Positions 8,824 to 57,443 of a DNA stretch of 58,158 bases are shown here, piece after piece (within the stretch, counting starts at the first letter, position 1; the number at the start of each line of letters is the position of its first letter). The DNA is from an uncultured Bacilli bacterium (GTDB taxonomy: Bacteria; Bacillota_I; Bacilli_A; RF39; UBA660). Made by a program: the position numbers and the translations under genes. Location of the stretch: NCBI GenBank assembly GCA_944329195.1, contig CALVHX010000002.1, forward strand, positions 1 through 58,158, written 5' to 3'. Under the pieces are notes generated by a model. It worked only from the letters and a program-made list of their open reading frames with translations, was not told the origin of the DNA and ran no database searches.

Positions 8824-9030
8824 TTAATAATTTTTTCTATTTTTTCTAGAATTAATTGTATTTTTCTTTTTCTCTTCTTTCAATTTTACTCCTGGTTTTT
8901 TATATCCTTCTGCTCTTTCTTTAGCTTTAGAGAGATTACCATTTCGTGCAACTTGATTTTTGAATTTTTTAAGAGCAAATTCGACATCATTATTTCTTAC
9001 ACTAACGGTTACTTTAGTTCCTGCCGACAT
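8824..9030 (-). CDS. rpsU: 30S ribosomal protein S21
   Basis: VSVRNNDVEFALKKFKNQVARNG...EGYKKPGVKLKEEKKK; start at the ATG after GGAAGGAGGG; consensus promoter TTGTAA-17-TATAAT at about 9060..9090. Confidence 0.9.
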   Translation of the reverse strand: MSAGTKVTVSVRNNDVEFALKKFKNQVARNGNLSKAKERAEGYKKPGVKLKEEKKKNTINSRKNRKNY

Positions 9031-9126
9031 CTTATCCCTCCTTCCGCTTTTCATTAAAGATTATAACATTATTTGACATATTTTACAAGCAGAATATTTA
9101 ATAAAATATGGTTTTTTGCCTTTTTT

Positions 9127-9294
9127 TTAAATATCGCACATTTTTCCGGACACTTTTCTTCGAATATAACTTCCTAGGGACTCTCCTATTTGATAAATCA
9201 CTTCTAAAGTACGATAAAATGCAGATAGCATAGAAGCGGTTAAAGAAGCTCCTCCAGAAACTTCGATCATTTCTGTTTTTTCTAATTTTTTCAT
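9127..9294 (-). CDS. Double-glycine-leader peptide B (55 aa), class II bacteriocin-like precursor; not in the ORF track
   Basis: Hand-translated: MKKLEKTEMIEVSGG|ASLTASMLSAFYRTLEVIYQIGESLGSYIRRKVSGKMCDI. SD GGAGGAG lies 5 nt before the ATG. Leader has L-12, E-8, M-7, V-4, GG. Confidence 0.75.
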   Translation of the reverse strand: MKKLEKTEMIEVSGGASLTASMLSAFYRTLEVIYQIGESLGSYIRRKVSGKMCDI

Positions 9295-9305
9295 ATTAAC
9301 TCCTC

Positions 9306-9455
9306 CTAATTGTTACATTTTTTAGGGTTTGCATACCCGTGAAATATTCCAGTTACAAAGCTTATTAATCCAGTTATTAATATAACTACTGTAGTAGCAC
9401 TAATGCCACCGCCACCATCTACTTTCTTCATTTCTTCTTTTGTTATTTTTTGCAT
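9306..9455 (-). CDS. Double-glycine-leader peptide A (49 aa), class II bacteriocin-like precursor; not in the ORF track
   Basis: Hand-translated: MQKITKEEMKKVDGG|GGISATTVVILITGLISFVTGIFHGYANPKKCNN. SD GGAGG lies 5 nt before the ATG. Leader has I-12, E-8, M-7, V-4, GG. Hydrophobic mature core. Confidence 0.75.
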   Translation of the reverse strand: MQKITKEEMKKVDGGGGISATTVVILITGLISFVTGIFHGYANPKKCNN

Positions 9456-9466
9456 ATATTCCTCCA

Positions 9467-9898
9467 TTATTTATTCAATATGTACTCTATTATTTTCTTA
9501 TCTTCCTTCACCACCTTTAAATTGATAACTAAATTATTTAATTTATATTTTATTGGTAAATTTACCTTTATTTTTATTATCTGATATGTATCGACATTAT
9601 CGGTAAAATACTCACTATCGATGTTTATGATTTTATAGCTATATAATTTTCCATCAATTACTAATTTGTTATTATTAACTAGATATTTTACTTTAGAAAT
9701 AGGGATATAAATTTTCAAGTAATACTCATTTTCTTCATTTATTATTATCCCTCTCAGATCATAATATGTTTTATAATTAAATACTGTAAATATTATAATT
9801 AAGGAGAGCATTATTATAATAATTATCATTATGTATACGTAAATAAAAGGTTCAACTTTTCTTTGAAGAATTATTTCATTATCTATATATTTATTCAC
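9467..9898 (-). CDS. Small single-pass membrane protein, possible minimal HlyD-like export accessory (or immunity) protein
   Basis: 143 aa; one N-terminal TM helix then a beta-rich domain; GTG start overlaps the ABC stop (GTGA); sits between the exporter and the peptides. Confidence 0.45.
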   Translation of the reverse strand: MNKYIDNEIILQRKVEPFIYVYIMIIIIIMLSLIIIFTVFNYKTYYDLRGIIINEENEYYLKIYIPISKVKYLVNNNKLVIDGKLYSYKIINIDSEYFTDNVDTYQIIKIKVNLPIKYKLNNLVINLKVVKEDKKIIEYILNK

Positions 9899-11976
9899 TC
9901 GTTATTCCTTATTGAATTAATTACGCTTCCATTATCTATCTTAATCACACGGTCATATAAGTCTATATTTTCTTTTCGGTGTGATACGATAATTATTGTA
10001 CTATCATAAAAGTAATAAAACATATTCTTTAAAATTTTTCTCTCTAAATTAATATCTATTTGACTTAAACCCTCATCAATCATAATTATTTTTCCTTCCT
10101 TTAATAAACTCCTAGCGAGTATTATTCTTTGACGCTCACCACCAGAAATATTACATCCATTTTCTTCTAGTAAATAGTCATATCCTAAAATATTTTCTTT
10201 GATTATGTCATTGATATAAAATATTTTACATATGTTTAAGTATTTTTCTTCCTTTATATTTCTACTTAATAGTATGTTATTTCGAATACTATCTGTATAA
10301 AGTTGTTCATTTTGAGATATATAAATGATTTCTCTTCTAATATCTGACATACTGTAGTCATTTATGTCATAGTTATTTATAAAAACCATGTTCCGCTGTA
10401 TTTGACAGTATTTATATAGTATTTTTAAAATAGTAGACTTTCCACTACCAGAAGAACCCAAAATTAGCACTTTTTCTCTATCTTTTATTTCTATACTTAT
10501 ATTTTTTAATATATATGTTTTGTTATTGTATGTGTAATCTAAGTTGCTTATATTAATGTTACCATTGATGTTTAATTTTCTCTCTTCATAAATTTTTTCA
10601 CCTTCTATTTCAAAAAGTGAGTTTGCTCTTTGCAGAGACGATTTGTTATAAAAGTATTCGTTTGACAATTCAATTAAATTATTCAATGGATAAATTAAAT
10701 AATTCATTAAATAGGATATTGTCACATAGTTTCCTATTGTTAATTTACCTTCCATAATGTATCTCATACTAATAAAACTAATCAATAATATACTTATGTC
10801 CCCAATAGCATTTTGAAGCGATAACATTAGATTATTTATTTTGGTAAAGTTATAACTGTTATTTAAACCTTCACTATATATTTTACTAAATTTTAAAATA
10901 GTATTATCTTCTATATTTAAACCTTTAACAGTTTCAAATGAGCTAACTGACTCAATTATGTTGTTATTTATTTTAGCATTATCTTCTTGATTTACAATTA
11001 CACTTCTTCTCGTATGAGGTATGAAGAAAGATAGCGTTATTATATTGATTATCTCTACAAAGACAATTAGATATGTTATTTTTTTATTTATGTTATAAAT
11101 AATTACAATCGACACGACAAAAGTTAAGGTATCTAAAAACAGCACTACTATAGATTTAGAAATAAAATTTTTTACATAAGATAGATCTTTAACTCGTGAT
11201 AAGATGTCTCCAGTGGTTCTATTTTTGTAATAACTGAAGGGAAGTAAAATTACTTTGCTAAATGCACTTATGATTATGCTACTATCTATTTTTTGATTTA
11301 AATAAATGATTAGATGACCTCTGATGTAACCAGTTATGATTTTTATTATATGAAAGATACAGAAAACAATTGTTATTACAACTAAATTATGCACATTGGT
11401 ATCTAAAATTTTGTCAAAGACTATTTGAGTATACAGTGATGTAATTCCTGTTATAATGGTAAATATTATCGACAACAAAATTAGGAAAATTATCAACTTT
11501 TTATTATTAAAGATGATTTTGAACAATAATTTATTTAAAACTTTTTCTTTGGGGTATAATGGTAACTTTCTAACTTTTTCAAATATCATTAAATAGCCAG
11601 TCCAAATTTCATTAAAATCAAATAAATCTTTTGTACTTTTACCTATTGCTGGATCCATAACTAATACTTTATCGTTACTAATTTTATAAACTACAACAAA
11701 GTGAGTGTAATTTTTATTCTTTAACTGAACTATGTAAGGCGCCGGAATATTTTTGATTTTTTCAATGTCATCTACTTTATATGCTCTACTTTCTAATCCT
11801 AGTGATGAGGCCGCTAATGAAATGTTATAAAAATTTGTTCCTTCTTTAGTTGTATTTGTCATATCTATCAATCTCTCAATAGAAATATCACCTCCGTAGT
11901 AACGAATGATTGATAGTAATGAAGCCGCACCACAATCTTTGTTTCCTTCTTGTAATACAATTAAGCTTTTTTTCAT
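9895..11976 (-). CDS. Bacteriocin-type ABC exporter with N-terminal C39 peptidase domain
   Basis: QEGNKDCGAASL (Cys), NYTHFVVVY (His), VMDP (Asp); 6-TM domain; Walker A GSSGSGKST; ISGGERQR; Walker B IIMIDEG. Start set to the ATG after GAAGGGAG, not the 12078 extension. Confidence 0.9.
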   Translation of the reverse strand: MKKSLIVLQEGNKDCGAASLLSIIRYYGGDISIERLIDMTNTTKEGTNFYNISLAASSLGLESRAYKVDDIEKIKNIPAPYIVQLKNKNYTHFVVVYKISNDKVLVMDPAIGKSTKDLFDFNEIWTGYLMIFEKVRKLPLYPKEKVLNKLLFKIIFNNKKLIIFLILLSIIFTIITGITSLYTQIVFDKILDTNVHNLVVITIVFCIFHIIKIITGYIRGHLIIYLNQKIDSSIIISAFSKVILLPFSYYKNRTTGDILSRVKDLSYVKNFISKSIVVLFLDTLTFVVSIVIIYNINKKITYLIVFVEIINIITLSFFIPHTRRSVIVNQEDNAKINNNIIESVSSFETVKGLNIEDNTILKFSKIYSEGLNNSYNFTKINNLMLSLQNAIGDISILLISFISMRYIMEGKLTIGNYVTISYLMNYLIYPLNNLIELSNEYFYNKSSLQRANSLFEIEGEKIYEERKLNINGNINISNLDYTYNNKTYILKNISIEIKDREKVLILGSSGSGKSTILKILYKYCQIQRNMVFINNYDINDYSMSDIRREIIYISQNEQLYTDSIRNNILLSRNIKEEKYLNICKIFYINDIIKENILGYDYLLEENGCNISGGERQRIILARSLLKEGKIIMIDEGLSQIDINLERKILKNMFYYFYDSTIIIVSHRKENIDLYDRVIKIDNGSVINSIRNNE

Positions 11977-12254
11977 TTTACTCCCTTCATCTTTTATATA
12001 CAACTTTTCTGAAGATTTTTCTAAATTTTTGCAAATTTTTCTTATAAATAAATTATTCCAAAACATACGTACACACAAAATAGTAGACTTGATTTTGAGT
12101 ATAATATGCTTCTAAATTTGATCAAATTATTTAATAAACAGTATAGTTAAAAATATAATTTCTGATAGAAAATGGTAACAGAGAACATTATTTTTTTATC
12201 AAATATATGTATATGAAAATTTGTTTACATGCACATATTAGTATAAATTAAAAT

Positions 12255-12312
12255 ACTATAGTAGAAGTTCACTATAGTATTAATCATAGTATATTACAAT
12301 TGAAATTGTAAT
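12255..12312. promoter_or_regulatory. Cluster of palindromic repeats upstream of the exporter operon (possible operator sites)
   Basis: Self-complementary ACTATAGT at 12255 and 12271 (16-bp period), a degenerate third copy near 12284, then a 9-bp inverted repeat ATTACAATT-ga-AATTGTAAT (12293..12312). Confidence 0.3.
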
Positions 12313-12322
12313 TGAAAAAAAC

Positions 12323-13405
12323 TCAATCCAAAATTGTTGGATTGAGTTTTATTTTTCTCTCATCTATAATATAATTTAGTTTAAATTCTTCTTCTTGATC
12401 TTCTTTTTTAATATTATAAATGAAAATATAATCTTCATAATCAGATGTGTCCAATTCTTGCTCACGATATCCTATGCCAACGTCTTCAAAATAATAGTAA
12501 TATTTTAGACTTGGTATATATTTATTTTCTTTAGTTTCTAGGACAAAATTATCTAGTTTTAATTCATATTTGTCTGTTTTTCCTTTGATGGAAAATTTTA
12601 TGATAAAGTAACAATAATCTTTACTTATTCTATTTTTTTCAGATATGAAACTATCGGTTACTTTAATGTTGAAATAATTAGTTCCTAATGTCTCTTTCTC
12701 ATTTAAATCTCTATTCATTACAAATTTGTTAAATGGAAATGAGATTATTAGAATTAGGGTTATTATTATCAAAATAATGTTAATAAAAAACTTGTTTTCT
12801 GCATAATAATATTTAAGTTCTCTAAGTACCCTTCTTCCTACTTTTTTAATATTATCTGATTCAAATCCGATATTTATTTCAACTTCTTCACTGTCTTCCT
12901 TTTCTAATTTTAGTTCGTTTAAGTCTTTACTAAAGTTAAATTTTTTTATATCAAATCCTAAACCTCTTACTAATACTGGAAGGCATATTATGAACATGCC
13001 CCAAAAATTAAATCTGCTAATATCTCTTAACAATCGTATATTCCTTGCGGACATATTACTTACTTCTAATTCTTTTAAATTAGAATATAAGTAGAGAAAA
13101 CAAATGACAGATAATATACTTACTATTACTATTATTACATACAAAAGTTTTGGTTTTTTCTTATACCTCATTAAAAGAAAGATTACGACGGATAAAACGA
13201 TAACGAAGATGAAAGATATAAAAAGAAATGTGCTTATATAATTACTAGATATTACCTCGATATTTCCGCTTGTAGAAATGTAGTCTTTGAAAAATGAAAG
13301 TATACTATTTGCTCGATATGTGATATAGGCAAGTAATGCAAATAATATTAAATGTATAAGTCTGAAACTTTTTATTAATATGGCATATGGTCTTCTTAGT
13401 ATCAT
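12323..13405 (-). CDS. Polytopic membrane protein with extracytoplasmic beta-rich C-terminal domain, function unknown
   Basis: 360 aa; about 4 N-terminal TM helices, an acidic linker, a fifth TM, then a strand-rich domain that looks DUF4352-like by eye; ATGA overlap with the upstream gene; hairpin plus U-run over its stop codon. Confidence 0.6.
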   Translation of the reverse strand: MILRRPYAILIKSFRLIHLILFALLAYITYRANSILSFFKDYISTSGNIEVISSNYISTFLFISFIFVIVLSVVIFLLMRYKKKPKLLYVIIVIVSILSVICFLYLYSNLKELEVSNMSARNIRLLRDISRFNFWGMFIICLPVLVRGLGFDIKKFNFSKDLNELKLEKEDSEEVEINIGFESDNIKKVGRRVLRELKYYYAENKFFINIILIIITLILIISFPFNKFVMNRDLNEKETLGTNYFNIKVTDSFISEKNRISKDYCYFIIKFSIKGKTDKYELKLDNFVLETKENKYIPSLKYYYYFEDVGIGYREQELDTSDYEDYIFIYNIKKEDQEEEFKLNYIIDERKIKLNPTILD

Positions 13406-14865
13406 CTTTCTACATATCCCTCCAAATTGTTTGGATCCTCTAATTTATATGGGTCAGTACTAGTTCCTGTGCCTGATACAACAAGAGTTGATTTTTTTAA
13501 ATAAAGCGTTGGAATAATAGGATATGAACTATATGCATTTAAAGTCATTGCTCGTCCAGTGCTCGAGATAATCGTTACAGACATATCGGAGTTAAAATTA
13601 TTAGTTATCATCCACTGATTAGTACCGGTATGTAGCCAATCATTGTTGCGACATGCATAGGAACTTGTACTATTATTATAGTTATATAAATTTTGTGTAC
13701 ACTGTGAGAAGTCCGTCGCATATCCATAATCAGATGGATAAATTAGTCCTATTCCGCCAATCCATGTCGATGACTGCCCAGAGGGAACTTCACTTCCTCT
13801 TTCGTATTGATATGCCTCATCTGAATATATTTGTAAATTAGAGTCAATACCTCCTAAATTCCAAGTAGCATTGTCTATCATCCACCTTGTTTCTTCGTTT
13901 TTTAATCCCGTACTTGTGAAATCACAAGCTGTGGCAGCATTACTACGTCCAGAATAACAGTTTCCACTTGCTCCATTGTAATATAAACTTCCTCCTACGC
14001 TTTCACTCTCATATCCACTATTTAAGAGTTTCATGACGTCTGCTTGACTCCAATTATTTACCCCGTAACCAGAATTAGAAGTTGAACTTGAGCTATCCCA
14101 AGAATATGTGCCGATCGATTCTCCTCTAACAATTTTTGCTCTTCCGTTAAATACTCCTATTATTCTCCACAATTCACAAGTATCGGAAGTTTGACTACTA
14201 TAGTTGCTACAGTTAAAATATATATAATTGTTAGGGTCAGCACCGTAATATCTAATGTTTCCTCCATCTAAAGACTGCGTTGTACCACCTAATCTATCAT
14301 TCATTAGGCCGACACTGGTAGCGTAGTTATAACTTATACTGTTATTACTAACCGTCGTTTTACTTGCGCTATCATATAATTCACTTATCTTTTTTGAAAT
14401 ATCTACTGGTGGAGTATATACTTCAGATACTAGCGTTATACCCGATGGTACTATTAAATCGCCACCTCTTTCATATCCTAAAATTGTCGACAGTGTTATA
14501 CTTGTTTCGCCACCATTGTTTTCTAAAAATAATTTTATATATTTATATTCATTAGCGGCAACAATGCCATCTTCTGGAGATTCAGAATCGCTGTATACTT
14601 TAACTGATACCGAAGAATTAGTAGTATAACCAACAGCGTATCTAATTCTGCCGCTGCTTGTATTTTGTAATCTGTACATAACTGTTTTTGTACTATTTGC
14701 TGGAATAGTAACTGTTTTTGTGTTCAAAGATTCTAAGTTCACTAAATATAGATCTTCTTGATTTAAGTCTATTGTCGTATCAGTAGCAAATGTTTGATAC
14801 AGCGCCGCTATTGTAAGTGAAATCGTTAATACTATAGCTGATGTTATTATTTTTTTTTTCTTCAT
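13402..14865 (-). CDS. Secreted surface protein, function unknown
   Basis: Signal peptide MKKKKIITSAIVLTISLTIAAL; Ig-like N-domain; S/N/G/Y-rich body with ELWRIIG, IGLIYPSDYGYA, WMITNN, PTLYL...SGTGTSTDPYKL. Consensus promoter TTGCCT-17-TATAAT and AGGAG SD. Confidence 0.65.
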   Translation of the reverse strand: MKKKKIITSAIVLTISLTIAALYQTFATDTTIDLNQEDLYLVNLESLNTKTVTIPANSTKTVMYRLQNTSSGRIRYAVGYTTNSSVSVKVYSDSESPEDGIVAANEYKYIKLFLENNGGETSITLSTILGYERGGDLIVPSGITLVSEVYTPPVDISKKISELYDSASKTTVSNNSISYNYATSVGLMNDRLGGTTQSLDGGNIRYYGADPNNYIYFNCSNYSSQTSDTCELWRIIGVFNGRAKIVRGESIGTYSWDSSSSTSNSGYGVNNWSQADVMKLLNSGYESESVGGSLYYNGASGNCYSGRSNAATACDFTSTGLKNEETRWMIDNATWNLGGIDSNLQIYSDEAYQYERGSEVPSGQSSTWIGGIGLIYPSDYGYATDFSQCTQNLYNYNNSTSSYACRNNDWLHTGTNQWMITNNFNSDMSVTIISSTGRAMTLNAYSSYPIIPTLYLKKSTLVVSGTGTSTDPYKLEDPNNLEGYVER

Positions 14866-14939
14866 AAGCAATCTCCTCTTATATTTCTTATCTTACTATA
14901 TAAATTATATAATAAAATTTAATAAAAGGCAACAAAAAA

Positions 14940-18276: not shown

Positions 18277-20334
18277 CTAAGGCATACAAGTTTCTATTTT
18301 CAGTCTATCTTTCTTTATCTTAAACATAATACTTCCATCTAAATCTGTTCTATATATTTTTGAATTGTTTAAATTATTTAATACTTCTTTATTTGGATGA
18401 CCATATCTATTATTTTTACCAACGCTTATTATCGAATATTTCGGATTAATACTATTTATAAATTCTTTGTGAGAACTTGTTCTACTTCCGTGATGTCCTA
18501 CTTTTAAAATATCGATATTTTTTAAATTATATTTCTCTAAAATATATCTTTCTACTTCCATTTCTGCATCTCCCATCAATAATATTTTTATTCCACTAAT
18601 TTCTGTATATATGATGGTAGAGTTATCATTTTCATCATCGTATAACTTATTATTTAAAAAATATAATCTGTTATTATTAAGATTTAATTCTTTGATATTT
18701 TGAAAATATTTTATATTCCTTTTTTCTAGAACTGTAATTAGTTTTTTTTCTAAATCGTTAAATTTTCCCCTATTGAAAATGACATTTTCTACTTTAAAAT
18801 TATTAACGAGATAAAAAGAACCACCAATATGATCATAATCGCCATGAGAAATAACTAAATAATTTATTTTAGAAATGCCCTTGCTTTTCAGATAATTGAT
18901 TATATTTTTAATTTTGTATTCGCTATAATTATTACCAGTATCTATTAAGATGTTTTTTTTATTATATGGAAATTGAATTAAAAGACAATCTGCTTGTCCT
19001 ACATCAAATGCAACAATATTTGTATCACCATCAAGATATGGAGAGGCCTTTATAATTAAGATCGTTATTAATAGTAGATAACTGAGTTTTGGTTTATGTA
19101 GAGTAATTAAAAGTATAATATAATAAATAATAATTATAATTATGTTGGGTTTTGGAAAGCTGATTATGGTTATTTCTATACTTGAAATAAATATTGTAAA
19201 GTTTTCTAACAAACTAATTAATTGATATAAAAAGGAATCCAAAAAAGGAAGTATTAATGCAATTATCGAAAGTGGAAAAATGATCGTGCTTACTATTGGA
19301 ATTAATAAGACATTTACTAAAATGCTAATAATATTAATTTCATAACTATTATAAATAGTTATTGGTAGAGACGCGAAAAAGGAAATAAGCGTGGTATATA
19401 TTGCTTTATTTATTCCTTTCTTTTTTCTGATTCTATTTGTAAATATAATTAAGAATAGTGATATTAAGTAAGAGTATATAAAGCCTATATCATATATGAT
19501 AAATGGGTCTATAATAATAGCTAAAATGATTACTAACATCATTATATCAATTTTTTTAAGATTTAGTTTAAATAAGTAGTTAAAAGTCGATAGACTATAC
19601 ATAAGAATTGCTCTAAGCAATGAAGGGATTATGCCCAATAATAAAAGGAAAAAAATTAAGAATACATTTACGATGATACGTTTAATTTTCTTGTTATATG
19701 TGATCCTATCTAAATAATAGCATATAATGGTACTGATAAAATAAATATGTGAACTTGATATTGAAAACAAATGGGAGACGCCTATATTTTGATATTCTTC
19801 TTTGATATCTGCGCTAATATCACTGTTGTCTCCAAGTATAAATGTTTTAATATAAGATGATGACTTCATAGTATTAATTTTTTTGTATAAAATATTCTTT
19901 ATCGTATATAAGTAATTGTTGTTATTTTCTATTTTATTAATTTTATCAGCTTCGACTATGTAATAAATTTTTTTATTATATAAGTATTTTTTATAGTCAA
20001 ATGAATTAGGAATCGTATTTTTAGTTGGTTCTACTAGATTTCCCCTTACTAAAATTTTATCACCGTATGCTAAATTGTCTAGTTTTTGTCCTTCTTTAAA
20101 TTGGTAATTAATTATTAATTTTTCTCTTCCTTTTATTTCTAATGTTAATTTGGAACTGGTTGTCCTAATTTTTGTAACTTCCCCAATAAAGACTTTATCG
20201 CTTTTATTGTATTTTGACTCAAAACAATAAAACCTTGTAAATAGAAAAGACCCTATAACAAAAACTAGTGCTAGAAATTTAAATAAATATTTAGACTGTA
20301 ATACTCGCTTTAATTTCTTCAAATAGTTCCTCAC
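18277..20334 (-). CDS. comEC: DNA internalisation competence protein ComEC/Rec2
   Basis: OB-fold N-terminus, GVSHLFSISSSH competence domain, many TM helices, C-terminal metallo-beta-lactamase (FDVGQADC, SHGDYDHIGG, VGHHGS). Confidence 0.9.
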   Translation of the reverse strand: MRNYLKKLKRVLQSKYLFKFLALVFVIGSFLFTRFYCFESKYNKSDKVFIGEVTKIRTTSSKLTLEIKGREKLIINYQFKEGQKLDNLAYGDKILVRGNLVEPTKNTIPNSFDYKKYLYNKKIYYIVEADKINKIENNNNYLYTIKNILYKKINTMKSSSYIKTFILGDNSDISADIKEEYQNIGVSHLFSISSSHIYFISTIICYYLDRITYNKKIKRIIVNVFLIFFLLLLGIIPSLLRAILMYSLSTFNYLFKLNLKKIDIMMLVIILAIIIDPFIIYDIGFIYSYLISLFLIIFTNRIRKKKGINKAIYTTLISFFASLPITIYNSYEINIISILVNVLLIPIVSTIIFPLSIIALILPFLDSFLYQLISLLENFTIFISSIEITIISFPKPNIIIIIIYYIILLITLHKPKLSYLLLITILIIKASPYLDGDTNIVAFDVGQADCLLIQFPYNKKNILIDTGNNYSEYKIKNIINYLKSKGISKINYLVISHGDYDHIGGSFYLVNNFKVENVIFNRGKFNDLEKKLITVLEKRNIKYFQNIKELNLNNNRLYFLNNKLYDDENDNSTIIYTEISGIKILLMGDAEMEVERYILEKYNLKNIDILKVGHHGSRTSSHKEFINSINPKYSIISVGKNNRYGHPNKEVLNNLNNSKIYRTDLDGSIMFKIKKDRLKIETCMP

Positions 20335-20929
20335 CTATTCCACTTACATTTTTTATATCGTCAATGGTTTTAAAAGAGCCATTGTTGCTACGATAATTAA
20401 TTATTTCTTCTGCTCTTACTTCTCCTATGCCTGGAAGAGTCATTAACTCTTCTTTACTAGCGGTATTAATATTAATTATTTCATTATTGTCTTTAGTATT
20501 ATCTTCTTCTATACATGCATCATTTTCTTGAATTGGACAATCGCATACGCATATTTGTCCTTTTAGTTTTTCTAATACTTCATCACTAGAGTAGATAATA
20601 ATTGTCATTTCGTCAGTTACTGTTTTTGCTAAATTAATTAAACTGGTATCTGCCCCATCTAATAGACCACCCGCTAGTGATATGACGTCATTTACTCTAT
20701 AGGTACTATCTACTTCGTATACTCCCGGATTTGCAACCATTCCTTTTATATCCACGACTACTTTAAGATCGCTTACTGTCTTTTTATCAATATTGTCTTC
20801 TTCTTGTTCTTCCTCTTTGAAGATATCTATCGTCACTTCTTTTTCCTCTATATCATTTTTATATAAAACGTAGATTATTACTATCATTAAAATTGATATT
20901 CCGCCCAATATCATTATTATTTTTTTCAT
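20291..20929 (-). CDS. comEA: Competence protein ComEA (SLBB plus helix-hairpin-helix DNA receptor)
   Basis: N-terminal TM, GMVANPGVYEV SLBB motif, INTASKEELMTLPGIGEVRAEEII...VSGIGEELFEEI HhH pair. Confidence 0.85.
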   Translation of the reverse strand: MKKIIMILGGISILMIVIIYVLYKNDIEEKEVTIDIFKEEEQEEDNIDKKTVSDLKVVVDIKGMVANPGVYEVDSTYRVNDVISLAGGLLDGADTSLINLAKTVTDEMTIIIYSSDEVLEKLKGQICVCDCPIQENDACIEEDNTKDNNEIININTASKEELMTLPGIGEVRAEEIINYRSNNGSFKTIDDIKNVSGIGEELFEEIKASITV

Positions 20930-27078: not shown

Positions 27079-27843
27079 CTAACTATTTTGTTTTACATAT
27101 TCTAATCTTAATTTGTCCGCTACTGTCACTATGAATTCAGAGTTCGTTGGTTTTGCCTTATCGATATCGACACTGTGCCCAAAGACATCTTCCATCAGAT
27201 CCCAATCGCCACGATTCCACGATACTTCGATGGCATGTCTAATGGCTCTTTCTACACGTGATACTGTTGTATCAAACCTACTAGCTAACTCTGGATATAG
27301 TTCTTTTGTTATACCTCCGATTATTTCGGGATTATCATATACTAGTGAAATGGCTTCCCTAATGTATTGATAACCTTTAATATGAGATGGCATTCCTAAC
27401 TCATGTAATATTTTGCTAATTGATATTTGGAGGTTGTTGTGAAAAATATTGATTGTTCTTTTACTTGTCTCTTTGAATGTATCTAGTATCTTATCTTCTA
27501 AATCGGATAAATCGAAAGGCTTTAAAATATAGTAATTCACACCGAATTCACTTACCTTTCTAATAGTATCTGGAGCATTATAAGATGTAGCTACTATGAT
27601 GTCTTTTTCCAGCTTTAATTTTTTTAACTCCTTCAAAACTCCCAATCCATCTTTTTTAGGCATAATTAAGTCTAGTATAATTAGATCATACTCTAAATTT
27701 TTTCCCTTTATTATGTTAAGTCCTTCCTCGCCATCATAGACTGTTCCTACTACTTCTATTTTAGGGTGGTTTTCAAAATAATCTTTTACCATTTCTGTCA
27801 AGTTGATGTTATCATCAATCATTAAAATTTTAATTTTTTCCAT
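27079..27843 (-). CDS. spo0A: Sporulation master regulator Spo0A
   Basis: REC domain ([16 protein letters not shown]) plus Spo0A-specific C-terminus [12 protein letters not shown] and [20 protein letters not shown]. Confidence 0.95.
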
Positions 27844-49430: not shown

Positions 49431-50850
49431 TTATATTCTCCTTTTTCATTAATTTTTCTATTTGAAATCCCATTAAAATCATAAGAGGAACTAACATAGG
49501 CATAAAATATCGTGGTGATACTTCTACTAATAAATGCGAAGCTACCAATCCTATAAATAACAATCTATAAAAAACTAATCTACTATTTTCATCTTTATCA
49601 GTTATATTAAAAATACTAAATATATTAATAATAAACATTAAAAACCAAAAACAATATAAATAAAATTTAAAAACAGTATTATATTTTTTACTTTGATTAA
49701 TTACACTACTTGTAAAATTATCATATGTATATGAACAAACATCATTAGTAAGTACTTCTAATTTTTTTATCATAAACTTTGATAATGTTATCATATTATA
49801 GCTTTTATAGTTTTTTATTCCTTCTTTCATAAAATATTCATGTATTTTAGAAGGAGAAAAATGTTCATCTTTAGCAAAAAATTCATCCAATTTAGGTTCT
49901 AAAAACCATGAACCATTTGAATTGATATTAGATCCTACATAAACACTCCAACCACTTCCACTTTTTGAAAGAGTATATCCCGTTACATCTTTAACAAAAT
50001 TATAATTTAAGTTATTATATACACTATAACATAATACAATTAAAATAAAACTTAATAAAAGTTTTTTTATAGCATATTTTGAAAATATTATTAAATATAA
50101 ATAATATAAAAATATTGCTATTAAGAAAATTATCATAATCGGTCTAAATGAATTACTTATACCAATAATTATTCCTAAAATAATACTAATAATTAAATAT
50201 TTTTTATTATTAAAACTAGATAATAAGCATTCAAAAACATAGGCACTAATTATTATCATAGTATTAACAATATTAATAGGTAAAATTTTCATACACCATA
50301 TAATATTAAAAGGATTAAATAACCATATTAAAAGTAATAAAATTCCTTTATTCTTATCATTAAATAATTTTTTCCCGAACAAGTACGCAAATACAGAACC
50401 AATTAAATCAATTATTATATTAAAAGTAATTGCATGATATATTGTAGTTCCAAAAACTTTCATAAATATACTTAAAATATTAATATACCCAAATAAATAT
50501 GGAAATACAGCAATATATTTACTGTTTATGTCTAAATTTGAGGATAATGATACAGCATTATAGTAAAATGTTGCTTCGTCACTATATACTTCATTATAAT
50601 CAAATATTAATAATGAAAATCGTAGTAATATGGCAACAATTATTAAACTTATAATAATTATTTTGTTTTCCAATATTTTATTGATAAAATTATATTTTTT
50701 ATTTAGCTTACAAAATATATAGATAAACGCAACACTTAATATTCCTAATATTGATGACAATAATAAATTATTTTTTAAAGATAATAAATAAATTAGAGCT
50801 AACAACCCAATATAAATTATTAATAATGTTTTATTGATAATACTTTTCAT
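49423..50850 (-). CDS. GT-C fold membrane glycosyltransferase (PMT_2/ArnT-like)
   Basis: 475 aa, more than 10 TM; first extracytoplasmic loop has YSDEATFYYNA; the pattern fits family 39/83-type GT-C enzymes. Confidence 0.55.
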   Translation of the reverse strand: MKSIINKTLLIIYIGLLALIYLLSLKNNLLLSSILGILSVAFIYIFCKLNKKYNFINKILENKIIIISLIIVAILLRFSLLIFDYNEVYSDEATFYYNAVSLSSNLDINSKYIAVFPYLFGYINILSIFMKVFGTTIYHAITFNIIIDLIGSVFAYLFGKKLFNDKNKGILLLLIWLFNPFNIIWCMKILPINIVNTMIIISAYVFECLLSSFNNKKYLIISIILGIIIGISNSFRPIMIIFLIAIFLYYLYLIIFSKYAIKKLLLSFILIVLCYSVYNNLNYNFVKDVTGYTLSKSGSGWSVYVGSNINSNGSWFLEPKLDEFFAKDEHFSPSKIHEYFMKEGIKNYKSYNMITLSKFMIKKLEVLTNDVCSYTYDNFTSSVINQSKKYNTVFKFYLYCFWFLMFIINIFSIFNITDKDENSRLVFYRLLFIGLVASHLLVEVSPRYFMPMLVPLMILMGFQIEKLMKKENIND

Positions 50851-51557
50851 TTTAACTTTCTCACTTTAAACAAAAACTTCACATTACTATCATAAAATCT
50901 TTTAATTCTACTAGGTTCTTTTAATATTCTATATAACCATTCTAAATTTAATTTTATAAATATTTTAGGTGCTCTTTTTTTATGACCACTTATCACATCA
51001 AAAGATCCACCTACCCCTACAAATATTCCTTTTTTAAATTTATTTAAATGTTTATATATTAATTTTTCTTGTAATGGTATTCCCATTGCTACCAATATAA
51101 TATCAGGTTCTAATTCAACAATTTCATCAAATACTTTATCTTTATCTTTTACATAACCATCTTTGCTACCTACTATTTTTAAATTAGGATACTTTTCACT
51201 AATTAAATTATTTAATGATTCAATAACTTCCGGTTTTGCTCCAAAAAAATATATTTTTTTATTTAAAGAATTCCCTAATTCAATCAATTTATTAGCTATA
51301 TCAATACCAGTAATTCGTTCTTTTACATCGTAATTAATCATCCTAGCTGCTTTAACTATTCCTATCCCATCAGGAACTAAAATAGTATTTTTATCTAAAA
51401 GTAATTCTTGCATTTTATTATCATTTTCACTTATCATAAAAGTTTCAGGATTAGAAGTAACAATAAACATTCTCTTATTATTCTTTAAATTTTTCTCTAA
51501 AATTTCATAAAAAGAGTCTTCATCTTTATTGTATAACTTATCAAATAACTTTCTCAT
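50847..51557 (-). CDS. tagA: WecG/TagA/CpsF family N-acetylmannosaminyltransferase (GT26)
   Basis: LVPDGIGIV, FFGAKPEV, VAMGIPLQE, GVGGSFDV, EWLYRILKEPSR; start after GGAGG. Confidence 0.85.
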   Translation of the reverse strand: MRKLFDKLYNKDEDSFYEILEKNLKNNKRMFIVTSNPETFMISENDNKMQELLLDKNTILVPDGIGIVKAARMINYDVKERITGIDIANKLIELGNSLNKKIYFFGAKPEVIESLNNLISEKYPNLKIVGSKDGYVKDKDKVFDEIVELEPDIILVAMGIPLQEKLIYKHLNKFKKGIFVGVGGSFDVISGHKKRAPKIFIKLNLEWLYRILKEPSRIKRFYDSNVKFLFKVRKLK

Positions 51558-51631
51558 ATCTGCCTCCATATCAATGTCCATAATTATTATAACAAATATA
51601 ATAGCAAAAAAAAAGGTGCTATACCTTTTTT

Positions 51632-52894
51632 TTATTTTATTTGATCAAAATATTTATCTAAATCATCTATAGTAGTATAAGTTACAATAACAAATCTCCT
51701 AAGTTTAAACTTATCACTACCTACATGTACTAAATTATCGCTATTATTACTCTCACCAATAAAAGCCATAGTAAATCCTGCTTCTTTTACTAAATTAATT
51801 GCATAATCATTATATTCATAAAATGGATAACAAAATACAGTTGAACCATTCAGAACTTCTCTACTTGCTTTTAAATCAGACAATATTTCTTCTTTTGGTA
51901 AACACTTAATTTCTCCGCCCTGTCCTCCTGGGCACTTACCACCATTATGCATATTATGAGTGTGAGAATGGAACTCAATATATTCACTCTTTCGATATGA
52001 AGATGGATCAAACCATGATGTCACAAGAAATATAGTAGCGTTCATTTTATATTTTTCTAACAAATCAATTGCCACATCTGTTTTACCACCATCATCAATG
52101 GTTATGAATACACTTTTAGGAAGTTGAATTTCTCCATCAATATACATTTCCACTTCTTTTGCTGTAACAGATAGGATATTATTTTCTTTAATATACTCTA
52201 AATGAGATTTAAATTGTGTTTTAGAATGACATATTTCAGTAGTACAATCATTTTTTTCTTCTAAATTATTTTCATCATAAAAAGCGTGATAATTAAGAAC
52301 ACCTATTCCACTAGAATTTTTTAATTCAGTATTATTAGCTTTAATGACTTCTTTAACATTATCTTTCTTTAAATATACAAGTTCTTTATTAAATTCTACA
52401 CCATATTTATTACCATCTTTAATAATTATTGGCAAAGTGTATGATTGATTGATTCTATATAACTCATTATCTTTTTCATCATAAAATATTGTTAAATTAT
52501 TAGTTACTACATTTTCATTAAACACAATATAATTTTTATATCGATTATCTTTAACATTTAAATTATCGATAGGGGTAATATCTTTATAATATACATAATA
52601 ATTAATGTCATTTGATTTAATTTGAAAATATTCTTTATCATCAACCTGTTTATCCATTAATTCTAATTCTATATTCTTAGATATATAACCTTTTTCTATA
52701 TATTTCCCATTTAATAATTCATATAATTTAGTTTCATTATTAGTAATTACATATTTATTATAATGTTCCTTTATTTCCTCATTAGTTTTATTATCTAAAG
52801 TCTCATTATCTTTTTCAGTTGATAAATAAACTATACTTCCTATAAGTAAAATTAACATACCCCCACAAATTAAAGATATTTTTTTATGTAGCAC
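51632..52894 (-). CDS. Membrane-anchored polysaccharide deacetylase (NodB homology domain)
   Basis: N-terminal TM; FITIDDGGKTD and HSHTHNMH metal/catalytic motifs. Confidence 0.8.
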   Translation of the reverse strand: MLHKKISLICGGMLILLIGSIVYLSTEKDNETLDNKTNEEIKEHYNKYVITNNETKLYELLNGKYIEKGYISKNIELELMDKQVDDKEYFQIKSNDINYYVYYKDITPIDNLNVKDNRYKNYIVFNENVVTNNLTIFYDEKDNELYRINQSYTLPIIIKDGNKYGVEFNKELVYLKKDNVKEVIKANNTELKNSSGIGVLNYHAFYDENNLEEKNDCTTEICHSKTQFKSHLEYIKENNILSVTAKEVEMYIDGEIQLPKSVFITIDDGGKTDVAIDLLEKYKMNATIFLVTSWFDPSSYRKSEYIEFHSHTHNMHNGGKCPGGQGGEIKCLPKEEILSDLKASREVLNGSTVFCYPFYEYNDYAINLVKEAGFTMAFIGESNNSDNLVHVGSDKFKLRRFVIVTYTTIDDLDKYFDQIK

Positions 52895-52914
52895 GATTTT
52901 TCACTCCTTATTAT

Positions 52915-55635
52915 TTATTTCAAAATATTTTTCCATATTTTAAATATCTCTTCGCTAGAAAATTTATACGATTTTTCTTTAGCACTATCTCCCATTTTTT
53001 TTCTCTTATTTTTATTACTTAACAATATTTTTAATTTTTTTTCATATTCTTTTGCATCTCTATTTTTTATAATATAACCATTAACATTATTATCGATTAT
53101 GTCATTAACTCCACTATCTGTTTCATACGCAATGCAAGGGACTCCATAACTCATAGCTTCTAACAAAACCATAGGTAAACCTTCTGATATTGATGCCATT
53201 AAAAATACACTTGAATCTAATAAATATTTTTCAATTTCTTCTTTTGATAAATACCCTGTTAATGTTACTTGTTTTTCTAAATTTAATTTTTTTATTTGCT
53301 CCTTTAAATTATCATATTCTTGACCATCACCTATAATAGTTAATTTTACATCTTTGTCATTCAAATGTTTAAGTATATCAATTATTTCGTTATTTCTCTT
53401 TCCTATATCTAATCTACTTATAGTTATTATATTTTTATTACTTAAATTACTCTGACAATTTGGTATATTTTCCAACATATTAGGTAACAAAATAACTTTA
53501 GTATTTTTATTATTAATGAAAATTTTTTCATAATCATTTTTTAAGCAAATAGTTAAAGCACATAAATAATCAATATTTTTATAATTCTTCTTTAATCTAT
53601 TTATATACTTCTTATCATTATTATGGTGATGATGTTCTTGAGCTATTTTGATAATATCATTTCTTCCACATTCTGATAATATTTCACTAAATTCTAATCT
53701 AGTTGAAACTACATATTTAGAATTTGTTTGTAAAATACTATCCATCATAAGCGCTTTTTTATTAATTAAAATATTACAAGCAATAACTCCTTCTTTCAAA
53801 ATTCTAAATATTTTTTTATTATGTAAACTTTCTAAAAATTCAACTTTATTTGGTCCTCCGTCATGCAAGTATTTAATAGATACTTTTTTATTTAATTTAG
53901 CACTTTGATTTTCCTTTAACTTATAAAATGATATTATCTCTACTTCATATTCATTGCACAAAGTATTGGCAGTATTAATAGTTGCACTCTCAATTCCACC
54001 ATACCCTAAATGTAACATTAAAAAACTTATTTTTTTATTATTTATTTCTATTTTTTTTAAAGAATTATACATACCTGTAACTATGAGGGATAAAATGGAT
54101 GAAGGAAAAAATATTCCAAATACATGACCTGCAAAAAGAGAAATACTTATCATAAAAATAGCAGCCAAAGATAGTGAATATGTATAAATATTAATACTTC
54201 TTTTTAAATTACGTAATATATTTATTATGGAGTATATTACAATTCCTATATAAGGAAATAATAATAACACCATTCCAATATAACCAAACCAAACTTTTTG
54301 CCCAACAAAATCTTTTTCTAAATATGGAAAATTAGAAGAATAACCTATTCCTAATAAATAATCTAAGTTATTATTCCGTTTTTCAACAATATCTTCATAT
54401 ATTTTTACTTTAAATTGTCTATAATTAGTTAGTTCTGAAACTGATTTCTTAGTTATATTAAACCAAAAATCAAAATTTTCTTTTACTGGATAAAAATCTA
54501 TATATGTTTTAGGTATATCAAAACAAGAAGGGCAGTCATCAATATATATACTAACATATTCTTTTTCTATTTTATTTAATTTGTCTTTTTTTCTTATATC
54601 ATCTAATGAAAGGTTATATTTTTCTTCAAGTTCTATTAATCTTTTATTTCTATTGTCATCTTCACCTTCATTATTATTACCTTTATCAACTTCCACAATT
54701 CCGTCTTCACTTAAATTATCAATATATCCTTCTAGCTTATACTTTATTGGTGAATAGTTATATATTATTATTACTACCATTATATATAAAATAAAAATAA
54801 TGCCTCTTTTTAAATATAATTTTTTTCTATAAAATATAAAGTATAAAATTATATAAATAACTAATGACATAACAGAAAAGAATATAGCAAAAAATGCTGT
54901 TTTTGTAGATAACATAATAGCTGCTAATATTTTAATAAAAAATGATATATAATAAATTAATTTATTTTGATAAACAGCATAAAATATTGATACAAAAAGC
55001 AAACCTCCTAATATTGCAGATAATTGATTGGTAGAATAAAATAATCCTCTTGATGTATACAAATCAACACTATTAGGATTTATTCCATTAAACCAAGATA
55101 TAATATTACCATCTATTCTTACTAGGCCTTCATAATTAGATGAGTATGCAACTAAAGATACACCTAATAAATTACTTCCTACAATAATGATACTAATAAT
55201 AAAACTCAATTTAGATAAAATTCTCATTATGTTGTGTACTTTTAATTCTGATTTCATATAAACAAATAACACAATTAATGGCAATATATATGCTCTAAAA
55301 ATATAATAAATTTCTATGAAAATATTTAGAGAGTGATTTACGTAATTCATATCATTAAATGTTACTATATAGTAAGAATGCATTATCATATAAATTATAC
55401 ATATTGCAAAATATATAATACTTTTAATAGAATTAAATTTTTCTTTTCCTCTTATTTTTTTGATCCACAACAATAACAACAATATAAATGTAAATACCAA
55501 ATTAAATATTTCTACCATTGAAATTCCAAAAATTTCTATTTTATTTCCTACTATTGCCCTATATATGTCTAAAAAGGGTAAAATAAGTATTAAATTCAAT
55601 ATAATTTTATTATAATTATATTCCCTTTTTATCAT
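52915..55635 (-). CDS. Fusion protein: O-antigen polymerase/ligase-like polytopic membrane domain plus C-terminal GT4 glycosyltransferase
   Basis: About 530 aa with more than 10 TM (Wzy-like), then LHLGYGGIESA ... SISEGLPMVLLEAMSYGVPCIAY (GT4 EX7E region). Junction near nt 54033. Confidence 0.7.
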   Translation of the reverse strand: MIKREYNYNKIILNLILILPFLDIYRAIVGNKIEIFGISMVEIFNLVFTFILLLLLWIKKIRGKEKFNSIKSIIYFAICIIYMIMHSYYIVTFNDMNYVNHSLNIFIEIYYIFRAYILPLIVLFVYMKSELKVHNIMRILSKLSFIISIIIVGSNLLGVSLVAYSSNYEGLVRIDGNIISWFNGINPNSVDLYTSRGLFYSTNQLSAILGGLLFVSIFYAVYQNKLIYYISFFIKILAAIMLSTKTAFFAIFFSVMSLVIYIILYFIFYRKKLYLKRGIIFILYIMVVIIIYNYSPIKYKLEGYIDNLSEDGIVEVDKGNNNEGEDDNRNKRLIELEEKYNLSLDDIRKKDKLNKIEKEYVSIYIDDCPSCFDIPKTYIDFYPVKENFDFWFNITKKSVSELTNYRQFKVKIYEDIVEKRNNNLDYLLGIGYSSNFPYLEKDFVGQKVWFGYIGMVLLLFPYIGIVIYSIINILRNLKRSINIYTYSLSLAAIFMISISLFAGHVFGIFFPSSILSLIVTGMYNSLKKIEINNKKISFLMLHLGYGGIESATINTANTLCNEYEVEIISFYKLKENQSAKLNKKVSIKYLHDGGPNKVEFLESLHNKKIFRILKEGVIACNILINKKALMMDSILQTNSKYVVSTRLEFSEILSECGRNDIIKIAQEHHHHNNDKKYINRLKKNYKNIDYLCALTICLKNDYEKIFINNKNTKVILLPNMLENIPNCQSNLSNKNIITISRLDIGKRNNEIIDILKHLNDKDVKLTIIGDGQEYDNLKEQIKKLNLEKQVTLTGYLSKEEIEKYLLDSSVFLMASISEGLPMVLLEAMSYGVPCIAYETDSGVNDIIDNNVNGYIIKNRDAKEYEKKLKILLSNKNKRKKMGDSAKEKSYKFSSEEIFKIWKNILK

Positions 55636-56612
55636 TTTATCATCCCTTTTACAAAAAATAACGCATTAACTAAACCATATGTTTTAGCAGAAATTAAATT
55701 ATAAATAATTCTTCTATTCCTTGTTAATGTATTTATATATTTATTTTCTTTAAAATTTGGAAATTTTTTCTCCATATAACTTATTAATTTATTTATAACC
55801 TCACGTTTTAATTTATTATCAGCTTCTGCTCTTAAAACTCTTACTATTGCAGATATATAAATATGATCAATTGCTAAAAACTCAATCATTTCTATATATT
55901 CGTGTTTTCTATTTTTTTCAACATAGTTAAGCACATCATCAAAAGCCTCAAGTATTTCCAAATTTCTTTCAACATTAGAATTATTCATCGTAGAACCTTG
56001 TCTAATTAAATAATCATAAAATGGTTCATCTATAAAAGAAAATTTAGAAGAATTAATAATCGCTTTTAAAGTAAATGCTAAATCTTCATACCATACTTTT
56101 TCTTTAAAAGTTATTTTATTATCTATTATTATATTTCTCTTATATATTTTATTCCATACTGCCATTTTTCCAAACATAATATTTTCTAAATCTGTATCAT
56201 AGTTAGTTATAAATGCATCTATCTCCTTCTTTGAGTAATTTTCACAAACATTATAGCTACCACATATAACAATATCTGACTTATCTTTCTTCGCCTTATT
56301 ATACATTTTTTCAAACATATCTAGTTCTACAAAATCATCACTATCCACAAAGGCAATATATTCTCCAGTTGATACTTTAATACCATAATTTCTAGCAGAA
56401 CCTTGACCTCCATTTTCTTTTATATAACTTTTTACTTTGTCAGGATGTTTTGCTACATACTTATCAATTATACTCTGACTATTATCAAGACTTCCATCAT
56501 TAACTACTATAATTTCAATATCTTCCAGTGTTTGATTTACTAGACTATCTAAACATTTTCCTATATACTTTTCTACTCCCCAAACAGGAATTATAATACT
56601 TACCCTTTTCAT
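55632..56612 (-). CDS. Family 2 glycosyltransferase
   Basis: VSIIIPVWGVEKYIGKCLDSLVNQT...IIVVNDGSLDNS...FVDSDD. Confidence 0.85.
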   Translation of the reverse strand: MKRVSIIIPVWGVEKYIGKCLDSLVNQTLEDIEIIVVNDGSLDNSQSIIDKYVAKHPDKVKSYIKENGGQGSARNYGIKVSTGEYIAFVDSDDFVELDMFEKMYNKAKKDKSDIVICGSYNVCENYSKKEIDAFITNYDTDLENIMFGKMAVWNKIYKRNIIIDNKITFKEKVWYEDLAFTLKAIINSSKFSFIDEPFYDYLIRQGSTMNNSNVERNLEILEAFDDVLNYVEKNRKHEYIEMIEFLAIDHIYISAIVRVLRAEADNKLKREVINKLISYMEKKFPNFKENKYINTLTRNRRIIYNLISAKTYGLVNALFFVKGMIK

Positions 56613-57443
56613 TTAATCACCCTTAATTCTTAAATATTCTTCATAAGAATGTTCTAAATCTAATACAATTCTCGTATGCTCTTTTTTTTTAATTTCTTCT
56701 TTTGATGGGATTTTCATAAAATCTCCATAAATGTGTTTTAAATATTCTTCAGTTTTTTCAGGAACGGGTAATTTAGTATCTTCAAATTTAACATATTTAG
56801 GTTTTCCCATAATATCCTTATTAGTCATATTAACTCCCATACCATCTCCATCAAATATACAACACCAATTATCATAATTGTTACAACTATATTTAATACA
56901 ATTCTTAGTACAAATTTTAATTATTTTATATCGTCCAACAATCTTTTTCATAACCTTAAATAATGATGCCAAGACTTTATTATTAATAACATTAATATCA
57001 GATGACATAACAAAAGCCCTATTAATTTCTATTAGTTTTCTTTTAAGTTTATTTTTAGGTATACCAACAAACGGAAAAATATCAATGTAAACACCGTAAG
57101 TTATGTTTTTATCAAGGTTTCCTTCTTCGATTAACGTAGTTGTAATATCTCTCAATTTCATAAATGATAAATAATATTCTTTTTCTGTATCTTTATTTTG
57201 CAAAAAATATTTCTTCTTATCTAATTTTTTATCACAAACTTCAATAAATTTCAAATAATTTTCATATGTCATACCAATATCAAAATCATCATCCCACGGA
57301 ATAAATCCTTGATGCCTAATAGCTCCTAATGCAGAACCAAAAATAATATAATATTCTATATTATTTTCTTTACATAATCTATCAATGTATTTAATCATTT
57401 CTAACATTTTAAGTTGTAAATTTCTTAAATCATTTTTAGCCAT
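56613..57443 (-). CDS. LicD family phosphotransferase
   Basis: YYIIFGSALGAIRHQGFIPWDDDFDIGM; ATG after AGGTGA; 8-nt overlap with the upstream gene. Confidence 0.85.
   Translation of the reverse strand: MAKNDLRNLQLKMLEMIKYIDRLCKENNIEYYIIFGSALGAIRHQGFIPWDDDFDIGMTYENYLKFIEVCDKKLDKKKYFLQNKDTEKEYYLSFMKLRDITTTLIEEGNLDKNITYGVYIDIFPFVGIPKNKLKRKLIEINRAFVMSSDINVINNKVLASLFKVMKKIVGRYKIIKICTKNCIKYSCNNYDNWCCIFDGDGMGVNMTNKDIMGKPKYVKFEDTKLPVPEKTEEYLKHIYGDFMKIPSKEEIKKKEHTRIVLDLEHSYEEYLRIKGD

Follow-up and report, generated by a model that had tools for sequence, protein, structure and literature searches.

A conserved two-peptide, bacteriocin-like cassette with a C39-peptidase exporter in uncultured gut Bacilli

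A 58,158-nucleotide stretch of DNA from an uncultured Bacilli bacterium (contig CALVHX010000002.1; hereafter the window) carries at positions 9127-11976, on the minus strand, a cassette of four co-directional genes: an exporter gene, a gene for a protein of 143 amino acids (aa), and two small peptide genes, here called pepA and pepB, followed by rpsU-yqeY. We interpret this cassette, with moderate confidence, as a class IIb-type two-peptide bacteriocin-like system. Judging from the sequence, processing of the two leaders and export of pepA and pepB are very likely; with regard to an antimicrobial function of the pair we lean, somewhat cautiously, in its favor. An earlier note on this DNA had described open reading frames (ORFs) of 49 aa (9306..9455) and 55 aa (9127..9294) on the minus strand, and both coordinates and sequences are as it gave them. 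It had also described a co-directional unit with overlapping or very short junctions; these measure -4 nucleotides (nt) between the exporter and 143-aa genes, 11 nt between the latter and pepA, and 11 nt between pepA and pepB. The cassette and its boundaries comprise the following features.

9895..11976, minus strand: C39-peptidase ATP-binding cassette (ABC) exporter of the PCAT type, 693 aa, with its ATG at 11976
9467..9898, minus strand: 143-aa single-pass membrane protein, putative transporter accessory, whose GTG start overlaps the ABC exporter stop (GTGA)
9306..9455, minus strand: pepA precursor, 49 aa; leader 9411-9455, predicted mature peptide of 34 aa 9309-9410
9127..9294, minus strand: pepB precursor, 55 aa; leader 9250-9294, predicted mature peptide of 40 aa 9130-9249
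11977..12040, minus strand: inferred promoter-like A/T-rich block ending in GTTGTATATAA, then the exporter ribosome-binding site (RBS) GAAGGGAG
12318..12350, minus strand: terminator hairpin of the upstream operon, forming the 5′ boundary of the cassette (14-bp stem, 5-nt loop, T-run; inverted repeat I1)
9060..9088, minus strand: rpsU promoter, forming the 3′ boundary of the cassette (TTGTAA-17-TATAAT with upstream TG; promoter scan)

The pepA precursor consists of leader MQKITKEEMKKVDGG and mature portion GGISATTVVILITGLISFVTGIFHGYANPKKCNN; pepB consists of leader MKKLEKTEMIEVSGG and mature portion ASLTASMLSAFYRTLEVIYQIGESLGSYIRRKVSGKMCDI. Each ATG is preceded, at a distance of 5 nt, by a strong Shine-Dalgarno sequence (GGAGG for pepA, AGGAGGAG for pepB), as the earlier note had it. 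Both leaders are 15 residues long and, in agreement with what had been claimed for them, fit the double-glycine consensus, with hydrophobic residues at -4, -7 and -12, Glu at -8 and Gly-Gly at -2/-1. When a regular expression for the strict leader pattern was run against the Met-started small-ORF candidates of 25-110 aa from the whole window, 331 in number, only pepA and pepB matched. The pepA leader profile finds its best PDB matches in known C39 substrates: the pre-carnobacteriocin B2 leader and CtA, which PCAT1 exports. The leader model TIGR01847 matches 6 of 14 pepA and 8 of 13 pepB sequences, the latter weakly.

At 49 and 55 aa the two frames are short, and the surrounding DNA is AT-rich, a setting that often gives rise to spurious ORFs; one could therefore take them for chance open frames. 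The conservation and selection data refute this reading, to which we attach practically no probability. In many genomes the frames, at 37-80% identity, keep their lengths, RBS and order, and the leader motif is confined to these two small ORFs. The ratio of nonsynonymous to synonymous substitution rates (dN/dS) in 11 divergent loci, where synonymous sites are near saturation, is 0.34 for pepA, 0.22 for pepB and 0.18 for the mature part of pepB, which is conserved as strongly as the transporter. pepB is represented by 48 protein clusters (51-100% identity), nearly all of 55 aa, with 14 invariant columns. From such comparisons, pepA and pepB are real genes under purifying selection; the loss of the reading frames in related loci, which the earlier note had named as grounds for dropping its proposal, is the opposite of what was found. 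A word-indexed protein search with pepA recovered only pepA itself. Its orthologues were found by synteny: all related loci have one, placed after the 143-aa gene and before pepB, so that a verdict of "no homologues" would be a false negative. The description of the genes as unannotated holds for the ORF track with which the earlier note worked and does not hold for NCBI, ENA and Logan assemblies, where the exact pepA and pepB peptides are already gene-called on 74-78 contigs.

The predicted mature peptides have 34 aa, a mass of about 3507 Da and a net charge of about +2 (pepA), and 40 aa, about 4459 Da and again about +2 (pepB). Mature pepA is laid out as a hydrophobic helix followed by G36xxxG40 and NPKKC47NN, mature pepB as an amphipathic helix with G37ESLG41 and a C-terminal KMC53DI. 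AlphaFold2 models pepB as a single helix over residues 16-49, with a predicted local distance difference test score (pLDDT) of 85-92 in the core. Residues invariant across the wider family are G14 and G15 of the leader and F33, G36, G40, P44 and C47 of the mature part in pepA; M1, E8 and the Gly-Gly of the leader and G37, G41 and C53 of the mature part in pepB. The GxxxG motif and the single C-terminal Cys of each peptide are kept in 24 distinct pepA and 26 distinct pepB sequences, totals reached after adding 31 metagenome loci. One pepA-like variant outside this count (L057) has Y in place of F33 and an extra Cys.

A search with profile models for double-glycine leaders and class II bacteriocins, proposed in the earlier note, gave matches to TIGR01847 (see above) and to TIGR03949, the class IIb model for the lactobin A/cerein 7B family. 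Each of the 14 pepA-type sequences gives a match to TIGR03949 at E <= 1; in four orthologues the score lies above the cutoff of 21.5 bits (L007, 26.1; L016, 26.6; L022, 36.8; L025, 22.1). Together with the invariant GxxxG of both peptides, a hallmark of two-peptide bacteriocins (PMC2850506), these matches sustain the designation "bacteriocin-like". PDB profile matches of pepA and pepB comprised leader matches and a chance AcrVA2 segment only, with no solved class IIb mature peptide among them. By its sequence, pepB is a new peptide family, without known relatives outside the clade.

The exporter carries the Pfam domains Peptidase_C39 (120.7 bits), ABC_membrane and ABC_tran, all above cutoffs, and aligns over its full length with PCAT1 (4RY2, E = 8e-92) and ComA (E = 2e-81). 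It shares with PCAT1 of Clostridium thermocellum (4RY2; with substrate CtA, 7S5J) and Streptococcus ComA (8HF4) the order of C39 peptidase, six-helix membrane domain and nucleotide-binding domain. The C39 catalytic residues are conserved: Gln, Cys (in DCGAAS), His (in HFVVVY) and Asp (in MDP). They align with those of PCAT1, and the earlier claim of an adjoining exporter with C39 Cys, His and Asp stands. The ATPase motifs are equally intact (Walker A, signature motif, Walker B with the catalytic Glu, H-loop), and the likeness to PCAT1 extends to the substrate, the pepA leader profile matching the CtA leader. Unlike PCAT1 and ComA, the exporter is always paired with a 143-aa partner; PCAT1 is not known to have a partner, and that of ComA, ComB, is a HlyD-type protein of about 450 aa. 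With TIGR01193 (384 versus 523.85 bits) and TIGR03796, the scores of the exporter do not reach the curated cutoffs. Orthologues are 693-694 aa long and lend no support to a mechanical TTG start at 12078.

From these features we infer a course of events that would comprise leader cleavage, export, peptide pairing, formation of a disulfide and antimicrobial activity. Translation would yield the pepA and pepB precursors, each headed by a double-glycine leader of 15 residues. This leader would be recognized by the exporter's C39 cysteine-protease domain, which would cut after Gly-Gly, and the transporter would release the mature 34-aa and 40-aa peptides. The 143-aa protein, presumably coupled translationally to the exporter gene, would act as a miniature adaptor or accessory on the outer side of the membrane. 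Once released, the hydrophobic helix of pepA and the amphipathic one of pepB would pair through GxxxG in the target membrane and permeabilize it. Since each peptide has one invariant Cys near its C-terminus, an intermolecular disulfide may lock the pair. GxxxG-mediated helix pairing has been proposed for all characterized two-peptide bacteriocins (PMC2850506).

The 143-aa protein has no sequence match above threshold in Pfam, NCBIfam or PDB. Its AlphaFold2 model (mean pLDDT 85.3) shows a helix over residues 2-39, comprising the N-terminal transmembrane segment, followed by beta strands; the predicted topology is N-in/C-out and single-pass, with an extracytoplasmic beta-rich domain. The Foldseek PDB list for the model is headed mainly by membrane-fusion/adaptor proteins of efflux pumps, namely MexA, MacA, BesA, Spr0693, AcrA and EmrA (E 0.04-0.2; template-modelling score 0.34-0.46), with no PDB match at E <= 0.001. 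Like LcnD/ComB of the HlyD family (TIGR01000), the protein is encoded directly after the exporter and coupled to it, is N-in, single-pass and C-out, and has a beta domain whose best, albeit weak, fold matches are membrane-fusion beta-barrel domains. Unlike these proteins, it is about one third their size, has no predicted coiled-coil hairpin or lipoyl domain and shows no sequence similarity to them. Membership in the HlyD/membrane-fusion family was rejected, there being no HlyD match in Pfam or NCBIfam even at E <= 10 and no PDB sequence match. A PedC-like thiol-disulfide oxidoreductase is excluded, because the protein contains no cysteine.

Further resemblance is found to two Mycoplasma families, the Mbov_0121-family C39-ABC transporter (NF045998) and MAG1140 (NF045999). 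The exporter scores 301 bits with the former model, and 37 of 41 relatives of the 143-aa protein match the latter weakly, over the whole 126-position model (best E = 7.9e-6); moreover, the cassette hosts are Mollicutes-related gut Bacilli, some of them labelled "Tenericutes". All of these scores stay below the curated cutoffs, however (301 versus 500 bits for the exporter; at most about 25 versus 35 bits for the 143-aa family, the window protein scoring 18.7). By this measure the 143-aa protein is a distant relative of the MAG1140 family rather than a member, and more distant members of its own family do not match the MAG1140 model. The literature searched contains two incidental mentions of MAG1140 and Mbov_0121 and no functional data on them. 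An exhaustive profile search delineated the 143-aa family as 377 representative clusters at E <= 1e-3, nearly all of 135-150 aa, and in every context examined its members are accompanied by the exporter and the peptide pair.

Its position, the overlap with the exporter gene, the modelled topology and the fold suggest that the 143-aa protein is probably a miniature transporter accessory or adaptor. Alternatively, it might be the immunity protein, and the locus would then be a complete, orthodox class IIb operon. We consider this improbable. The gene is, to be sure, the only one besides those of the transporter and the peptides that constantly accompanies the pair, and the model places the product in the membrane with exposure on the outer face. 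Its location is nonetheless that of LcnD/ComB, and the overlap with the exporter stop implies translational coupling and matched amounts of the two proteins. The immunity proteins known from class IIb systems are either multi-pass or of the Abi type. The best matches of the fold are transporter adaptor proteins, and the distant kinship is with MAG1140, a family that NCBIfam numbers beside the very C39-ABC family to which the exporter responds. Some room for the immunity alternative is left by the statement that "accessory" proteins may take part in immunity, and the function of accessory proteins at such exporters has been described as not entirely clarified (PMC2850506).

We compared the cassette with lactococcin G, enterocin 1071, plantaricin EF/JK and lactobin A/cerein 7B (TIGR03949) as representatives of class IIb. 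Like these, it has two different, adjacent peptide genes in one operon, 15-residue Gly-Gly leaders, and a dedicated C39-ABC exporter with an accessory gene; the mature peptides are cationic, predicted to be helical, 34-40 aa long and endowed with GxxxG, and some pepA orthologues pass the family model. The features by which class IIb is defined in PMC2850506 include adjacent peptide genes, Gly-Gly leaders of 15-30 residues, a C39 ABC transporter, GxxxG in both peptides and a cationic, helical character, all of which are seen or, as to helicity, predicted here. The pairing of pepA and pepB is kept in every locus long enough to show it. Unlike class IIb bacteriocins, the cassette has no immunity gene and behaves as a vertically inherited part of the core genome rather than a strain-variable one, pepB has no known relatives outside the clade, and a single invariant Cys near the C-terminus of each peptide suggests an intermolecular link. 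The combination of "intermolecular disulfide" and class IIb bacteriocins was not found among the papers listed from the literature searched; nor, including searches with peptide sequence strings, was any description of the cassette system found in that literature. The cassette differs from described systems in the small accessory that takes the place of a HlyD-type partner, the new pepB family, the single conserved Cys per peptide and the vertical, core-genome inheritance.

Its hosts are uncultured gut Bacilli, publicly labelled "Bacilli bacterium", "uncultured Tenericutes bacterium" or "Firmicutes bacterium CAG:321", with reduced genomes of about 1.46-1.68 Mb. The order exporter, 143-aa gene, pepA, pepB, rpsU, yqeY is kept in 11 of the 11 species-level genomes found, with varying upstream genes. 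The four-gene cassette also occurs in about 30 metagenome loci, and the same gene order surrounds all four distant members of the 143-aa family (54-91 bits; L022, L025, L026 and L027). In L049, where the 143-aa protein is about 48% identical, the cassette lies between trpS/UPF0029 and hrcA-grpE-dnaK. Flanking genes vary from locus to locus and are housekeeping genes (rpsU, yqeY, hrcA, trpS, nifU, spo0A). In none of the contexts examined does a transposase, integrase, kinase, regulator or immunity-like gene lie beside the cassette. Horizontal acquisition was considered and rejected, as the cassette shows neither mobile-element genes nor compositional anomaly and its divergence follows that of YqeY.

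Some copies of the cassette appear disrupted. In L007 (3378-5474) the exporter comes in two pieces, one of 124 aa with C39 and one of 569 aa; in L010 (5001-5051) a stop codon follows the pepB leader; and in L033 (about 2420-2560) pepA is truncated and fused to unrelated sequence. Among the metagenome loci added last, two have a frameshifted or truncated copy. These disrupted or frameshifted copies could reflect true decay, or assembly or sequencing error.

A number of observations weigh against the bacteriocin interpretation. The pepA of the window itself scores 18.6 bits with TIGR03949, under the 21.5-bit cutoff, and further orthologues score 16.2-16.4 bits. pepB passes no curated model in Pfam or NCBIfam and matches TIGR03949 weakly (best E 0.0046). 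The likeness of the 143-aa protein to adaptors is weak (E >= 0.04) and has no sequence support. Exporter divergence tracks YqeY divergence (Mantel r = 0.54, a value reached in 0 of 5000 permutations). The cassette is intact in 23 of 23 same-species long contigs from independent samples, chosen for carrying the exact YqeY of the window, and the peptide proteins are invariant among 11 strains, a weak test as these strains are near-identical and were selected for identical YqeY. From the sequences compared, the cassette behaves like a core-genome element that is vertically inherited and not strain-variable. Finally, no immunity gene was found in or beside it in any context examined; by the account in PMC2850506, an immunity gene always accompanies the two class IIb structural genes, in the same operon. 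The cassette is atypical in four ways: it lacks an immunity gene, its accessory protein is a miniature one, it is inherited vertically and it has become fixed in the species.

These features raise the possibility that the exported pair does not kill but acts on producer cells or their kin, either as a conserved factor associated with the membrane or as a housekeeping component of the envelope. Such a role would require no immunity gene and would explain fixation in the core genome. It would also suit the conserved position beside rpsU-yqeY (or hrcA-grpE-dnaK in L049), a divergence that follows housekeeping genes, the 23 intact same-species copies, the conservation of mature pepB at the level of the transporter (see the dN/dS and invariant columns above) and the retention of the cassette in reduced genomes. 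We nevertheless regard this explanation as unlikely. Homology ties pepA to a class IIb bacteriocin family; helices with GxxxG and a cationic charge are typical traits of bacteriocins that form pores; and the cassette has no linked gene for a receptor or partner. Moreover, a producer can owe its immunity to an unlinked gene or to lack of the receptor. The disrupted copies in L007, L010 and L033 argue against essentiality, with the proviso of possible assembly error. A more elaborate version, in which a disulfide-linked heterodimer derived from a bacteriocin and domesticated in the core genome serves kin recognition, the envelope or host interaction, with the 143-aa family as a mini-adaptor replacing the HlyD-type partner, seems to us a little more doubtful still.

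It could be argued, too, that the peptides are secreted pheromones of the ComC/BlpC kind, exported by a ComAB-like pair and possibly linked to competence. The alignment of the exporter to ComA, the double-glycine leaders, which are common to competence pheromones, and weak matches of single family members to ComC and EntF-induction-factor models are in line with this idea. Likewise, in the window, comEC (Competence, Lactamase_B) and comEA (SLBB, HHH_3) occupy 18277-20929 on the minus strand, 6-9 kb upstream of the cassette, and distant cassettes adjoin pilin-like N_methyl genes (L026, 961-1883) or a GspE-type ATPase gene (L022, 2866-3342). Such neighbors could reflect ancestral synteny or a link to competence peptides. 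The proximity of comE and rpsU is presumably ancestral Firmicutes synteny (the B. subtilis yqe region), which counts against the pheromone explanation. Pheromones of the ComC/BlpC type have a linked kinase and regulator and a mature peptide of about 17-25 aa; neither is seen here, no histidine kinase or response regulator lying beside the cassette in any context and the mature peptides measuring 34-40 aa, with one hydrophobic helix resembling a transmembrane segment and GxxxG in both. Moreover, two conserved peptides are present instead of one, and conserved direct repeats of the regulator type are absent upstream. In our judgment a pheromone function is quite improbable, and we retain the two-peptide bacteriocin-like system as our interpretation.

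As to expression, the A/T-rich block at 11977-12040 can be aligned among 9-10 of 11 divergent loci, with partial conservation; it does not pass a consensus promoter scan. Neither the repeats of the window nor the alignment of upstream regions revealed conserved direct repeats of the bacteriocin-regulator kind upstream of the exporter. A perfect 11-nt inverted repeat, AATACTATAGT / ACTATAGTATT, with an 8-nt spacer, is present in the intergenic region upstream of the exporter (12252-12281). No counterpart stood out in the aligned upstream regions of other loci, and the repeat may be an operator or a remnant. Rfam identified no RNA element in or near the cassette.

At the other end, the sequence of the rpsU promoter, TTCTGCTTGTAAA.TATG.CAAATAATGTTATAAT, is kept in related loci. 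The earlier note had seen no terminator after pepB, and indeed the terminator scan gave no terminator-like site between pepB and this promoter in the window. Terminator hairpins 3′ of pepB are present in L007, L009 and L012 and absent from the window, L001, L005, L017 and L019. Because only some loci have them, transcriptional read-through from the cassette into rpsU is possible in the window, yet is not a conserved feature. The mechanical rpsU ORF (8824-9054, minus strand; 76 aa from ATG 9054) is probably too long. Orthologues and the RBS GGAAGGAGGG indicate that the start is most likely ATG 9030, giving 68 aa.

Upstream of the cassette, at 12323-14871 on the minus strand, lies a pair of genes that overlap by 4 nt and end at the terminator. 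They encode a 489-aa protein, whose N-terminal hydrophobic segment may be a signal or an anchor in the membrane, and a 360-aa protein that is hydrophobic and probably resides in the membrane; Pfam and NCBIfam gave no significant family match for either. Their association with the cassette is confined to its closest lineages: the 360-aa gene accompanies it in L001, L010, L011, L012 and L028, the 489-aa gene in L001, L010 and L028. Both were considered as immunity or partner genes and rejected as core parts, since L005, L007, L013-L019 and L049 lack them upstream of the cassette.

Other observations concern the window and its relatives at large. A full-length Spo0A (receiver and Spo0A_C) is encoded at 27079-27843 on the minus strand, in a genome of about 1.5-1.7 Mb with relatives labelled "Tenericutes"; spo0A also adjoins the cassette in L005. 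Those labels prompted consideration of genetic code 4, which seems unlikely: under table 11, 48 long ORFs can be read through, and the lengths of orthologues are those expected if TGA is a stop codon. The interval 50001-58158 has a G+C content of 0.21-0.24, against 0.25-0.34 elsewhere in the window, and a strongly negative GC skew over co-directional genes; it may be an island or a distinct operon block. A 1.68-Mb contig with identical cassette peptides and YqeY (L061) has, at 9972-11438, a DDE_Tnp_1 transposase between vanY and mutS that is absent from the window and from other strains.

Uncultured gut Bacilli with small genomes are common in human gut metagenomes, and their interactions with neighbors are almost unstudied. 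The cassette offers a synthesizable peptide pair (34 and 40 aa) as candidate narrow-spectrum antimicrobials or signals. Should the peptides be toxins, one has to ask how a producer with no immunity gene beside a cassette fixed in its core genome escapes harm from its own product; should they have another function, the cassette would exemplify the reuse of bacteriocin machinery. In either event, the 143-aa family may serve as a minimal model for the role of accessory proteins at peptidase-containing ABC exporters in Gram-positive bacteria.

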